This document shows positions 28,679 to 32,250 of a stretch of DNA of 64,000 nt, in pieces. This stretch comes from an uncultured Verrucomicrobiae bacterium (GTDB lineage: Bacteria > Chlamydiota > Chlamydiia > Chlamydiales > Rhabdochlamydiaceae), in assembly GCA_963818965.1 (NCBI GenBank), contig CAWFUG010000002.1:122098-186097 (forward strand). The letters are read 5' to 3'. Position numbers and translations under genes: made by a program. The stretch's first letter is position 1. Every line of letters begins with the position of its first letter. The notes under the pieces were generated by a model, which worked only from the letters and a program-made list of their open reading frames with translations, did no database searches and was not told the origin of the DNA.

Positions 28679-29932
28679 ATGAAAAACAGTATCCGGATTT
28701 TCAGTCTCTTACTTAGCTTCATCTTTACCACAAGCGCAATGGCCACTGTCGTCGCAGGACTCGGCAAGGCAGACATGACACCCCCCATCGGAACCCCTTC
28801 GGCAGGATACAGAGGACGAGAGGGAAAAGGGATGGAAGGTGTGCACGACCCCCTTTTGAGCACAGCCCTTTTCCTCGATAATGGAGAAAAAAAGATCGTT
28901 CTATGCAGCGTCGATCACATGGGATTCACCTATGAAATGGTACAAAAGATCACCCAGAGGATTCACAATTATCCAGGACTTGGCTCCTGTGACATCTACA
29001 TCGCCTCCTCCCATACTCACTCAGGAGGAGGAGCTTTCCTGAATATCCCCGGTTTAGGAGAAGCTTTAGCAGGACCTTACGACAAAGAGATCGCTCAATT
29101 CTATATCGATCAGACCTTTGAGGCGATTCTCGAGGCCTACCACCACCCCATCCCCGCTAAAATAGGAATCGGGTATGGAACGGCAGAACCACTCGGTACC
29201 TATCGCGGCAAAGTCCCTGAGAACCTCACGCCTCTCTCTGACGTCGCTGTAATCAAGATCACCCATCTAGATGATCGTCCCCTCGCCGTCTTCTTTAATT
29301 ATCCCCTCCATCCGACGGTGCTGACCAATCGCAACTTCCTCTTCTCTGCTGACTTCGTCGGTTACGCAAGAGAGCATTTGCGCGATTTTTTAGGTCTTGA
29401 TGTCACAGCCCTCTATTTCAACGGGGCACAGGGAGACATCGCACCCCTTATCTTTAATGAAGAAGATCGATTCGATGCGTGCGACCAGCTGGGTTTGAGC
29501 CTAGCAAAGACCGTACGAGAGATTTGGGATAGGATAGAGACACAAGAAGATCTAGAGATTCAGACACAAAGAGAGTTTTACTCCTTCCAACCGCAACCTA
29601 CCCCGTTTGGTCTGTCTGCCCTTCCCGGGGAATTCTATAACAGCGAAATGAATCTGATCGTCTTGAATCAAACCCACGCTTTCCTCACCATCCCAGGAGA
29701 GCTCAGCTGTCTCTATGATCAGCGTCTCAAACAGACCGCCTGCGCTCTGGAATATGAGCATCTCTCGATCTTTGGTCTTACCAATGACGCACATGGCTAT
29801 ATCATTTCACCAGAGGCTTGGGAGCAGAAGGTCTTCGAATCGAGATTTTCTTTCGGTGGAAAAGATTATGGGACACTGACTGAAGCCAGAGGAGAAAAAC
29901 TCCTGAAGAAGGCCGCACCCACAGAGAATTAG
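28679..29932 (+). CDS. Secreted neutral/alkaline ceramidase-like (N-terminal domain) metallohydrolase
   Basis: Signal peptide; G.GKADMTP, VHDPL, SHTHSG, HPT, NGAQGD, PGE motifs. Confidence 0.8.
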   Translation: MKNSIRIFSLLLSFIFTTSAMATVVAGLGKADMTPPIGTPSAGYRGREGKGMEGVHDPLLSTALFLDNGEKKIVLCSVDHMGFTYEMVQKITQRIHNYPGLGSCDIYIASSHTHSGGGAFLNIPGLGEALAGPYDKEIAQFYIDQTFEAILEAYHHPIPAKIGIGYGTAEPLGTYRGKVPENLTPLSDVAVIKITHLDDRPLAVFFNYPLHPTVLTNRNFLFSADFVGYAREHLRDFLGLDVTALYFNGAQGDIAPLIFNEEDRFDACDQLGLSLAKTVREIWDRIETQEDLEIQTQREFYSFQPQPTPFGLSALPGEFYNSEMNLIVLNQTHAFLTIPGELSCLYDQRLKQTACALEYEHLSIFGLTNDAHGYIISPEAWEQKVFESRFSFGGKDYGTLTEARGEKLLKKAAPTEN

Positions 29933-30837
29933 AATTGAAATGCCACCCCTAAGTTGTAGGCGATGGAGTACCGAGTCTTGTCCTGTTTGCCATTTAGATC
30001 CTGTACTAAAGGGAACCCGATGCCCCATTGCACAATCCAACGGCTAGAGGATAACCAAATGCTCGGCGTGACGAGAATCGAATTCCCTCCAGAATTGGGG
30101 TCCGTAACGCGGTGGATCTTGTCCTTTTCAACATAAGTCCCATCAAATTCGATCATGAGATCGAAAATCCACCCCTTAGGACTTAATGGTTCAATATACC
30201 GCGCAAATCCCCATTGGTAGAGATAGGAATTTCCAAACCTCGTGCCGTGATGGGTCGTCGTTAAATTAACACCTGGAGAGAGGAATGCATACCAATTCTG
30301 AGACAGAAAAGCGAATGTTGTCCCTAAAAAATAAGTAAATGACCCATTGCCCGTTGCCGGATCTTTCCCACTTGATCCTGTGGGAAATTGGACATTCGCG
30401 ACGACAGTCCCCTCCAGGGTATAGTTTTTTCGACTCCGACTATAATACCCATATTCCCCCTGTAAGAAGATGTCCTCGATCCCCGAAGAATGAGAGGAAC
30501 CCGACCGACTTCTAGGACTAAAGGGAACATCAAAAAAGAGGGACAGATCATCCCGAATCCCATAGATCACATTCGGTGAGATCTCATCTAAATAACCATT
30601 ATGTTCCCGAGTATAGGCCCCCGACAACTGGGGGAGCAGTGCATTTTTTCCGATGAGAAGCTGACCAAAACTAACGAGGGGAGCGATTTGCGATTGAACC
30701 GAAACAGAGAAATTCCCGATGGGAAGAGTCTCGACTTCCTCGCCATCCCTTCCAAAAAGGAGACTAGACAGGCACAAAAACAATAGGGTTGATCTATACC
30801 ACATCTGAGAACTAGAAGGCATTTGCACCATGAGCAC
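29929..30837 (-). CDS. Probable outer-membrane beta-barrel (phenol-MetA/'transporter'-like)
   Basis: Signal peptide (start may be ATG 30804), G..DI...., FPTG motif, amphipathic strands, terminal ...GVAFQF. Confidence 0.7.
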   Translation of the reverse strand: MLMVQMPSSSQMWYRSTLLFLCLSSLLFGRDGEEVETLPIGNFSVSVQSQIAPLVSFGQLLIGKNALLPQLSGAYTREHNGYLDEISPNVIYGIRDDLSLFFDVPFSPRSRSGSSHSSGIEDIFLQGEYGYYSRSRKNYTLEGTVVANVQFPTGSSGKDPATGNGSFTYFLGTTFAFLSQNWYAFLSPGVNLTTTHHGTRFGNSYLYQWGFARYIEPLSPKGWIFDLMIEFDGTYVEKDKIHRVTDPNSGGNSILVTPSIWLSSSRWIVQWGIGFPLVQDLNGKQDKTRYSIAYNLGVAFQF

Positions 30838-30966
30838 GCGATTGTTTACTTTTGAGGGACTATACCTATACTCAAATTAGCTCAAAAGAGGCAAAGAAGG
30901 AATTTTGCTACCTGTCATGCAAAAAATGCCATAAAAATTGCAAGCATGGTAGCAAAAAAATAAGCT

Positions 30967-31404
30967 CTACGGAAAAACGCACCCGGGAGCCAAAAGTGCG
31001 GGACGAAAGGTTTTTTTGCTAGATAAAAGCAGAGCGCCCGTTTCTCGATGGATATAGTAGCGCAAAGAGGTCGCAGTTCCATAGCGCGGATTTTGAGGAG
31101 AAAAAAGCGACCCTGCTTTTGATGAAGTATAATCGGGCCAAAAGGCTCGCACAACATCTCTCCCAAGAGCGTCCGTTTCTATCCACCACTTTCCTGTATA
31201 GATTTGATTCTGTTTCCATAATTCACAATCTCCTTCGGGCAAAAAATAGAGCAAATACACGCTATGGCTTTGGCGCGTGATCCCGATGACCGTATTCCCA
31301 ACTACAGTCGTTTCAAACATCTCTCGATCCATCCGTTGATAATCGAGCGGAATTTCTTCGGCAACAAGGTGAAAACTCAGTATGAGTAGCAAAAATCTAA
31401 GCAT
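30967..31404 (-). CDS. Hypothetical secreted small beta-rich protein
   Basis: Signal peptide MLRFLLLILSFHLVA; start overlaps the stop of the upstream gene (31397-31404). Confidence 0.75.
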   Translation of the reverse strand: MLRFLLLILSFHLVAEEIPLDYQRMDREMFETTVVGNTVIGITRQSHSVYLLYFLPEGDCELWKQNQIYTGKWWIETDALGRDVVRAFWPDYTSSKAGSLFSPQNPRYGTATSLRYYIHRETGALLLSSKKTFRPALLAPGCVFP

Positions 31405-32044
31405 GGCAAACCCTCCGTCTCATGGCATAAGTATCAATTGCTAGGTTTAGACCAATCAGTCCCAAGGTGCATAACGTTCTATGAACATTCCATGCGCCTA
31501 AGATCAGCGATGTAGCAGTGACAAAAATCTTCCCCAACGATACGGCTGCTTTCCACTGGCTCTTAGTACGAATAGCTTCACTGAGTGCAAAGATGCGGTA
31601 AAAGAGATAGGAACACTCTGTGGTCAGTCGGAGCAGCGACAGATTGCCTACAATCGCGCGGCTCATTTTATCCAGTTGTACAAATTCTAGTTTTTCGATC
31701 CACCTGATGTTTCGTAGAAAAGAATAGCTGGCTAGAAAGACGCGGCTTGAGCTTCTTTGCCAGGAGCCCTTTTGAAAAAAATACAAGCCTTCATTGTCAG
31801 CAGATGTCAATTCTTTTCCCAAATGAATCGACTGCGCTACTCCCAAAATTTCAATGGTATCTCTTAATTGGCGGTGTATTTTTGTAAATCCCGTAGAGAC
31901 GATTATTTCGACAGAGTGATGTATTTCGATGTATAGCCGAACAGATTGATCGACAATTCTCAAAAGACGTTCTAAAGAATCTGTATTGGAAACGAGGCGA
32001 CTGAGGACCATTAAAGGTCGAGAATAATTCTGGATAGACACCAT
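31397..32044 (-). CDS. Hypothetical membrane protein, first gene downstream of the TPP riboswitch; weak PEX11-like pattern
   Basis: 215-aa ORF from ATG 32044 (GTG 32053 alternative); helical N-terminus and hydrophobic C-terminal hairpin. Confidence 0.75.
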   Translation of the reverse strand: MVSIQNYSRPLMVLSRLVSNTDSLERLLRIVDQSVRLYIEIHHSVEIIVSTGFTKIHRQLRDTIEILGVAQSIHLGKELTSADNEGLYFFQKGSWQRSSSRVFLASYSFLRNIRWIEKLEFVQLDKMSRAIVGNLSLLRLTTECSYLFYRIFALSEAIRTKSQWKAAVSLGKIFVTATSLILGAWNVHRTLCTLGLIGLNLAIDTYAMRRRVCHA

Positions 32045-32102
32045 CACGCTCACTTAAAAATACGCGATGATGCAGGAAAGCCTTCTGAAATTGGCTATCC
32101 CT

Positions 32103-32200
32103 ATGGTGTCCCCACGCTGGTATTATCCAGATCGGGTGTACAGGTATGATCTCAGCCTAAGAGCCTGTAAACAGGCTCTTATATCGGCACCCTGCACCAT
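32103..32200 (-). ncRNA. TPP (THI-box) riboswitch
   Basis: Minus strand reads AUGGUG-CAGGGUGCC-(P3)-GGCUGAGAUCAUACCUGUACACCCGAUCUGGAUAAUACCAGCGUGGGGA-CACCAT. P1 AUGGUG/CACCAU, P2 CAGG/CCUG, the UGAGA core, P5 CUGG/CCAG and the CGUGGGGA segment are all present. Confidence 0.93.
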
Positions 32201-32211
32201 CTTTTTCAAAG

Positions 32212-32250
32212 AGAGTAACATGGATTCAGCGATTTTGTCCAAGTTGCAAT
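32212..32250 (-). promoter_or_regulatory. Candidate sigma66/70 promoter for the riboswitch transcript
   Basis: Minus strand TTGCAACTTGGACA...TGTTACTCT (extended -10) ends about 11 nt before P1. Confidence 0.4.

Follow-up and report, generated by a model that had tools for sequence, protein, structure and literature searches.

Introduction

The thiamine pyrophosphate (TPP) riboswitch of Escherichia coli thiM works at the level of translation, through sequestration of the start site. Moreover, comparative genomics guided by riboswitches has repeatedly yielded real thiamine transporters. To our knowledge, most chlamydiae lack a synthesis pathway for vitamin B1, and no transporter by which these obligate intracellular bacteria acquire the vitamin has been proven. 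Here we describe a TPP riboswitch on the minus strand of a 64,000-nucleotide stretch of DNA (hereafter the window, in whose numbering the coordinates are given) from an uncultured member of the Rhabdochlamydiaceae, together with the two overlapping genes that it heads, A and B, and a third gene further downstream, C. A previous interpretation of this DNA made from the letters alone (the sequence-only reading) had proposed that the three genes formed an undescribed thiamine or TPP scavenging route with membrane, exported and outer-membrane components. The riboswitch and the novelty of the genes have stood up to the analysis, whereas the transporter-like nature of A and the membership of C have not. 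The link between the switch and the A-B pair is solid, and the function of the pair is what we infer from here on.

Two further groups of described proteins are relevant to this locus. The inclusion membrane (Inc) proteins of chlamydiae are predicted from a two-lobed hydrophobic hairpin combined with coiled coils. On the periplasmic side, ToxS and VtrC bind bile salts jointly with a membrane partner whose gene lies immediately upstream. The literature gave nothing relevant on TPP riboswitches in Chlamydiae or on thiamine riboswitches in Parachlamydiaceae, and no natural riboswitch in front of an Inc gene appeared in the titles and opening lines of abstracts of the papers listed, which seemed to deal mostly with genetic tools and gene function. 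In PMC2811131, the passages that match terms on thiamine and transport at the chlamydial inclusion membrane mention ApbE only.

The riboswitch and its predicted mode of control

A complete TPP aptamer on the minus strand had already been recognised in the sequence-only reading. The covariance model RF00059 confirms it with a match at positions 32092-32204 (minus strand) that scores 63.5 bits, above the gathering score of 54.3, with an expect value (E) of 4e-10, and that spans the full model (positions 1-105 of 105). Both ligand-sensing cores of this THI element are intact, the pyrimidine sensor as CUGAGA and the pyrophosphate sensor as ACC.GAUCUGGAUAAUACCAGCG; the alignment to the model contains GGCUGAGAU and ACCCGAUCUGGAUAAUACCAGCGU, and the pyrophosphate sensor shows the ACCUGAUCUGGAUAAUACCAGCG-like core that is characteristic of it. 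Variations are seen at the tip of P3, a variable part which is shortened here, and in P2, which carries a 19-nt insert. A search of the whole assembly of the genome that holds the window (G000; 2.24 Mb in 12 contigs, 87.85% complete) gave this riboswitch as the sole match to RF00059.

The ATG of A follows 58 nt past the end of the aptamer as drawn in the sequence-only reading, whose layout of the three open reading frames (ORFs), with this gap, the overlap of A and B and the 129 nt between B and C, was also correct. Between the aptamer and the AUG, a consensus scan of the leader detected no terminator-like site. The expression platform (32038-32091, minus strand, as delimited by folding prediction) is predicted to form a 12-bp hairpin, made by 32062-32073 and 32038-32049, whose stem holds the AUG of A at 32044. 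When P1 is enforced, the predicted fold of the leader reaches -65.5 kcal/mol with the AUG buried in this stem. An alternative 11-bp helix is predicted between the 5′ P1/P2 strand of the aptamer (32191-32201) and 32063-32073, with -64.4 kcal/mol when enforced, and its formation would exclude the aptamer as well as the sequestering hairpin. These predicted structures are best read as an OFF switch that acts on translation, as in thiM.

Recurrence of the switch with A and B

Genes of the same short form as A are scarce. Among 129 genomes of the same family only G000 and a second genome, G248, hold one, and these two are also the only cases in a 400-genome sample of the order; a second family contributed two more, G481 and G501, out of 103 genomes. 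All four hold A and B in a TPP-riboswitch unit, which occurs in three arrangements: the switch followed directly by A-B; the switch followed by a permease of the major facilitator superfamily (MFS) and then A-B; and the switch followed by an MFS stub fused to A, and then B. The A-B cassette is rare, with four genomes among those searched.

The G248 switch (66.3 bits) precedes A (221 amino acids), B (159 amino acids, 4-nt overlap) and a DMT_6 gene, and in its leader the AUG and a preceding AGGAA are predicted to lie in an 8-bp helix. That of G481 (71.8 bits) is followed by an MFS permease of 415-429 amino acids, A (214 amino acids) and B (148 amino acids, 4-nt overlap). Behind the G501 switch (74.1 bits) we find an ORF that opens on the start codon of the MFS gene, keeps some 20 of its codons and runs in frame into A, with B after it. 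The distance from P1 to the start codon is no more than 10 nt in both G481 and G501. As far as the deletion point, the leader DNAs of G501 and G481 share about 90% identity, which, together with the MFS stub, indicates that the permease was deleted from a switch-MFS-A-B unit and that A-B was left under the switch. Judging from the sequence, translation of A in G501 would begin at the start site of the permease itself, which is embedded in the riboswitch. This natural in-frame deletion of an MFS permease can be seen at positions 1337-2133 of locus L052 (G501:C4:598015-601641).

Each of the four genomes has different flanks around the unit (flotillin-like, HIT, Obg and other genes), which shows that the switch-A-B unit is what is kept, and with A being so rare, four chance juxtapositions with the switch are not credible. 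Three further metagenome contigs hold A-B pairs, one of them as MFS-A-B, with upstream sequences too short to judge the presence of a switch. Moreover, for 6 of 10 A clusters the longest contig has the same size as that of a B cluster, which suggests co-location.

The protein encoded by gene A

Gene A (31397-32044, minus strand) encodes, from its ATG, a helical protein of 215 amino acids that the sequence-only reading had taken for a membrane protein of the transporter-like kind. Hydrophobicity is confined to residues ~164-208 (Kyte-Doolittle mean over 19 residues above 1.2), and the remainder is polar. This segment forms a C-terminal hairpin with two lobes, 164-187 and 189-209, and a 5-residue polar loop, N-V-H-R-T; the two-lobed hairpin is kept across the alignment of the family and in its long forms. 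With a single C-terminal hydrophobic hairpin, a polytopic or transporter-like protein is ruled out, and A reads instead as a soluble helical domain anchored to the membrane. Its structure model is all-helical and of moderate confidence (predicted local distance difference test, pLDDT, 69.7), with the first 19 residues predicted to be disordered.

No Pfam or NCBIfam family matches A at E up to 1, and a sequence-profile search of the PDB gave 0 matches at E up to 10. By structure, Foldseek returned only 14-3-3 rows from the PDB (template modelling score ~0.25, E at least 0.2), and a wide structure search (VIA) reached a top Z of 9.3 that covers the C-terminal helices only and lies below the level meaningful for helical models. 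Nine further clusters of A at 90% identity were found among 5.8 billion proteins. A profile of A searched against 1.84 billion representatives gave 87 matches, 17 of them short-form relatives at E up to 1e-30, and about 60 representatives of 340-414 amino acids (long forms) that have the N-domain and the C-terminal hairpin in common with A and a coiled-coil-like insert in addition. A is the short form of a larger family without a Pfam entry, found as far as searched only in chlamydia-like sources. In 29 long forms scanned, no Pfam family passed the cut-off; some genomes hold several copies, and at the five loci examined the long forms adjoin neither B nor a riboswitch.

The nearest neighbours of A in the ESM Atlas are PEX11 clusters (0.90 and 0.88), followed by a cluster automatically named 'CT529 family inclusion membrane protein' (0.87); these matches are leads only, with a recognition value under the mark of the tool. 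An identity of A with PEX11 (PF05648) was not confirmed, with no match of the hidden Markov model (HMM) at E up to 1 and none in five genomes with A-like genes. Literature searches on PEX11 and the Chlamydia inclusion membrane brought up only work on Legionella and peroxisomes.

The protein encoded by gene B

Gene B (30967-31404, minus strand) encodes an exported protein of 145 amino acids with a signal peptide at about residues 1-16. The first 8 nt of the gene lie within the end of A, and an overlap of this kind is present in all four A-B genomes, which suggests coupled translation. B is strongly conserved: its homologs form 32 clusters with 53-92% identity and 22 invariant columns that are rich in Trp, Tyr and Phe. 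The structure model, of high confidence, shows an N-terminal helix and an eight-stranded antiparallel barrel (pLDDT 89.1, predicted template modelling score 0.79). An all-against-all structure search placed at the top TP0435 (4u3q_B; Z 10.4, root-mean-square deviation (rmsd) 1.9 over 86 residues), and it also returned the periplasmic domain of Vibrio ToxS (8u2f_B; Z 9.3, rmsd 2.7 over 102 residues), VtrC (5kev; Z 6.7) and many lipocalin-like entries at Z 7-8, so that B is assigned as a lipocalin-like barrel at the level of fold only. Foldseek gave no match at E up to 0.001. In the sequence-based searches no Pfam or NCBIfam family passed the cut-off, with only sub-threshold, chance-level matches at E up to 1, and the PDB profile search gave 2 chance-level matches at E up to 10. 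DUF995, a lead for B at 0.85 only, was not confirmed by the Pfam HMM scan. A complex prediction with A and mature B scored 0.00 against a mark of 0.32, a result that counts neither for nor against binding.

The absence of any recognisable thiamine family in A, B and C, as advanced in the sequence-only reading, held in Pfam and NCBIfam for the three proteins and in PDB profiles for A and B. In this line, no family model of ThiT, PnuT, ThiBPQ/TbpA, ThiXYZ, YkoEDC, CytX, ThiV, TonB-dependent receptors or TenA matched any of them over the cut-off.

Two side observations concern B homologs elsewhere. In another chlamydial family, at L040 (G187; 87-1222) and L044 (G230; 1-1101), B homologs without A or riboswitch adjoin, or overlap by 4 nt, methyltransferase-like ORFs in which glycine motifs like those of S-adenosylmethionine (SAM) methyltransferases were read by eye. 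The public assembly of a near-identical organism (P0012, a 24,793-nt contig) has B at only 90% identity, with the differences clustered in a single stretch; this has the look of a local frameshift or an error of sequencing in that assembly and not of real divergence.

The TPP regulon in related genomes

TPP riboswitches are present in 20 of 40 related genomes (21 of 41 with G000), at 23 loci. An ortholog of the G481 MFS permease lies downstream at 15 of these loci (tblastn, E up to 1e-10), and the remaining ones precede, as judged with Pfam, ThiM-ThiE, ThiC, ThiD, a ThiE-like protein, an ABC transporter or a TLC-type nucleotide transporter, with one locus unassigned. From the genes behind the switches of these relatives it follows that this switch in chlamydiae precedes thiamine supply. 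Within 1.5 kb of these 23 loci there is no copy of A, B or C. G248 and G501 carry a separate, additional switch in front of the permease ortholog. In another genome of the same genus as G000, G001, the switch stands before thiM-thiE in a non-syntenic context, and its comparison with the window locus aligns only the aptamer core (53 nt, 77%), with no shared context.

G000 encodes seven transketolase-type pyrimidine-binding domains of TPP enzymes, which indicates that this bacterium needs TPP. Thiamine pyrophosphokinase is encoded in G248, G481 and G501; within the 87.85%-complete assembly of G000, thiamine pyrophosphokinase and ThiE were not found, nor was ThiD over the cut-off, nor were ThiM or ThiC by tblastn with the genes of relatives. 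A and B, perhaps with C too, are the sole TPP-controlled genes in G000 as assembled.

Other riboswitch loci deserve a mention of their own. At L023 (G039:C9:110826-113925, positions 1603-2946) a switch of 64.2 bits stands directly before a homolog of the TLC-type ATP/ADP translocases (PF03219, 159.8 bits), a candidate TPP carrier from among the nucleotide transporters; three distant paralogs in G000 (25-27% identity) have no switch. A third TPP riboswitch of G501 (L055; G501:C4:641222-644327; 68 bits) is followed by small ORFs without a known family, including an open frame of 126 amino acids with a start rich in Asn, Ser and Pro, and at L006 (G016) an ORF of 99 amino acids lies between the switch and the MFS gene. 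These small ORFs may be further members of the chlamydial TPP regulon. Finally, a second TPP-like match in G481 (L051; G481:C41:6203-9296, positions 1501-1594), with 42.4 bits and below the threshold of 54.3, could be a decayed or divergent aptamer.

Gene C and the surroundings of the unit

Gene C (29929-30837, minus strand) starts 129 nt past B on the same strand and encodes a protein of 302 amino acids, a candidate outer-membrane beta-barrel whose end, ...AFQF, has the aromatic C-terminal residue of such barrels. No Pfam or NCBIfam family passed the cut-off, and matches at E up to 1 were sub-threshold and at chance level. The family PF13557 (Phenol_MetA_deg) does not match C itself and reaches 22.4-29.1 bits (cut-off 22) in 3 of 14 homologs, a hand-picked set that includes three flagged earlier in the search for C homologs. 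C has at least 203 homolog clusters with up to 75% identity, in comparison with about 10 to 20 for A. It occurs in 2 of 25 relatives, far from the riboswitch in both.

Directly past the stop codon of B, a stable hairpin (30903-30957, minus strand; -24.2 kcal/mol, z -4.2) is followed by a U-rich stretch. None of 200 shuffles folds equally well, and the consensus terminator scan, for which its loop is too long, did not flag it. We regard this hairpin as a candidate terminator or processing site between A-B and C. The sequence-only reading had included C in the system. C is missing beside A-B in G248, G481 and G501, as well as from the 23 riboswitch loci of relatives, and for this absence from the other A-B loci and for the hairpin after B, we consider it probably an unrelated neighbour, outside the conserved unit controlled by the switch. 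It is possibly reached by read-through, in G000 only.

Beyond C, a gene on the plus strand (28574-29932), convergent with it, encodes an exported protein of 452 amino acids with the N-terminal domain of neutral/alkaline ceramidases (PF04734, 57.2 bits), which is notable given that the bacterium feeds on lipids of its host. At 27424-28548 of the minus strand, 1.4 kb beyond C, lies a gene for an IS4-type DDE transposase (PF01609, 66.2 bits). On the other side, the unit immediately upstream of the riboswitch (32319-34268, minus strand) contains a gene for a membrane protein of 196 amino acids with no family and, after it, a flotillin/SPFH gene (450 amino acids; Band_7 96.6 bits, Flot 37.8 bits). 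A stable hairpin of 22 bp with a 15-nt loop (32257-32317, minus strand; -35.6 kcal/mol, z -8.3), which none of 200 shuffles equals, separates the flotillin-like gene from the riboswitch. It probably ends the upstream unit and insulates the riboswitch unit from the flotillin-like gene, from which it follows that the riboswitch transcript should start between ~32255 and 32205. A consensus scan found no promoter upstream of the riboswitch. Among sequencing runs, a search for holders of the sequence listed no RNA run and four DNA runs with small shares of its words (0.05-0.10).

What the unit may do

We give about an even chance to the reading in which the TPP riboswitch controls the translation of A and B, and these form an accessory module for thiamine acquisition that is turned on at low TPP. 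With TPP bound, P1 and P2 would form, 32062-32073 would pair with 32038-32049 and the AUG of A would be buried; under TPP scarcity, as folding predicts, the 5′ strand of the aptamer would take 32063-32073, the AUG would become free and A would be made, and B along with it through translational coupling at the 8-nt overlap. B would be exported by Sec and capture a thiamine vitamer in the periplasm, a ligand proposed because lipocalin-like barrels typically hold small ligands. A, held in the membrane by its C-terminal hairpin, may be the membrane-side partner or organiser of B, and both together would aid uptake under thiamine shortage. Passage through the membrane would correspond to the riboswitch-controlled, ProP-like MFS permease in G248, G481 and G501, and to another carrier in G000. 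The coexistence of A-B with a riboswitch-controlled MFS in these three genomes makes the MFS the likelier carrier and this, with C outside the unit, leads us to propose an accessory module and not a self-contained route through membrane, periplasm and outer membrane.

Several observations weigh against this proposal. The sequestering hairpin also forms in the unconstrained fold, and the ON state depends on a helix that is 1 to 3 kcal/mol weaker. A has no recognisable domain for binding or catalysis, in a model of moderate confidence. The MFS permease that A-B would assist was not found in the incomplete assembly of G000. In two other families of chlamydiae, homologs of B stand alone, with neither A nor a riboswitch (7 of 400 genomes), next to methyltransferase-like genes, murA or unrelated genes, which indicates that the B fold is not tied to thiamine everywhere. 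Finally, a 1,064-nt metagenome contig (L033) has an intact A homolog with no riboswitch in the 269 nt upstream, at E up to 1, and without B in the 150 nt past A.

An unlikely alternative is that A is directed to the host, as a type III-secreted, Inc-like protein made only at TPP shortage that, at the vacuole membrane, would either serve as a pore or recruit a host source of thiamine. B would then work in the periplasm or in the inclusion lumen, and the switch would control an effector instead of an envelope component. The only hydrophobic part of A, a two-lobed stretch of about 45 residues with its 5-residue polar loop, recalls the Inc signature, as do the relatives of 340-414 amino acids, multicopy in some genomes, that combine the same hairpin with a coiled-coil-like insert; the predicted disorder of the first 19 residues and the nearness to CT529-type and PEX11 clusters in the ESM Atlas (0.87-0.90, a lead only) go in the same direction. 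However, an inner-membrane tail anchor would account for a C-terminal hairpin just as well, no match to the PEX11 HMM turned up in A or in the five genomes with A-like genes, and such a tight translational coupling with a Sec-exported protein would be unusual for a type III substrate. A more specific version, in which A is delivered only at TPP shortage into the host-derived vacuole membrane, where it would form a passage for host thiamine or TPP, or recruit one, and B captures the vitamin in the periplasm or lumen, appears quite improbable to us. We also find it rather unlikely that A-B serves a thiamine-starvation response unrelated to uptake, such as envelope remodelling or a persistence-like state, with TPP as a reporter of host nutrients. 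The lack of transporter features in A, the presence of B homologs beside murA or methyltransferase-like genes without riboswitch in other families, and the role of the B fold as a signalling partner in ToxS and VtrC (Z 9.3 and 6.7) would suit such a response; it is harder to reconcile with the sharing of a unit by A-B and a candidate thiamine permease in G481, and with the fact that, in relatives, every other identifiable gene behind the switch serves to make, salvage or transport thiamine.

The gene behind a TPP switch is often tenA, and A, with about 215 amino acids and all-helical, has the size and class of TenA, so A could be a TenA-like enzyme, or B a known binding protein, that has diverged past recognition. 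We hold this to be very improbable in view of the lack of Pfam and NCBIfam matches and of the 0 PDB profile matches for A at E up to 10; the structure searches of A and B brought up no thiamine protein either, with the caveat that the model of A is only moderately confident. Scarcely credible is an orphan riboswitch, placed by rearrangement before unrelated genes that it would control without meaning, for all that an IS4-type transposase gene (27424-28548) lies 3.5 kb away and that the switch of the same-genus G001 heads thiM-thiE at a non-syntenic place. The sequence-only reading had named the association of homologs with the switch in other Chlamydiota as the point to look at, and the same pair indeed stands behind a TPP switch in three further genomes (G248, G481 and G501) with different flanks; moreover, the aptamer core is intact and the platform is predicted to bury specifically the start codon of A.

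Gene discovery guided by riboswitches marks here two protein families without any annotation, one of them with a hairpin typical of chlamydial proteins at the host interface. If B does bind a thiamine vitamer, it would represent a class of vitamin-binding proteins not seen before, built on a lipocalin-like fold. A location of A in the inclusion membrane would link the sensing of a nutrient by a riboswitch directly with the manipulation of the host, and a host-directed A would provide the first natural riboswitch known over a host-directed chlamydial effector and a first molecular entry point to the passage of vitamin B1 across the inclusion membrane. Given the rarity of the cassette, its importance is conceptual rather than general.

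Comparison with known systems

The unit shares with the thiM switch of E. coli an RF00059 aptamer, a leader without terminator, a buried start codon and a competing helix from the 5′ strand of the aptamer. The two differ in that the genes controlled here are neither thiamine enzymes nor known transporters, and in that the sequestering stem is predicted to contain the AUG itself and not a clear Shine-Dalgarno sequence. The chlamydial units of a TPP switch and a ProP-like MFS, a putative thiamine permease, have in common with our locus the switch, the bacterial group and the presumed purpose, and in G481 A-B even belongs to the permease unit; in G000, in contrast, the switch heads A-B directly and the permease was not detected in the assembly.

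With the Inc proteins of chlamydiae (for example, of the CT529/Cap1 type) A shares a two-lobed hairpin of about 45 residues, within the usual ~40-60, the coiled-coil-like inserts of its long relatives and a family confined to chlamydiae as searched. It differs from them in the position of the hairpin, at the extreme C-terminus, and by sequence it belongs to no named Inc family nor to PEX11. B, for its part, has the eight strands and the N-terminal export or anchor segment of periplasmic lipocalin-like barrels such as Treponema pallidum TP0435, Vibrio ToxS and VtrC and those of Bacteroides, with an identity of 4-16% and no match at the level of family; and unlike ToxR and VtrA, A has no periplasmic domain on which B could dock. 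A working analogy is offered by the tripartite ATP-independent periplasmic (TRAP) and tripartite tricarboxylate (TTT) transporters. There is no homology with them, B is lipocalin-like and does not have the fold of periplasmic binding proteins, and the cooperation of A and B is purely one that we infer, but in G481 the same three kinds of component, an exported and putatively binding protein, a small membrane protein and a secondary carrier, come together in one regulated unit.

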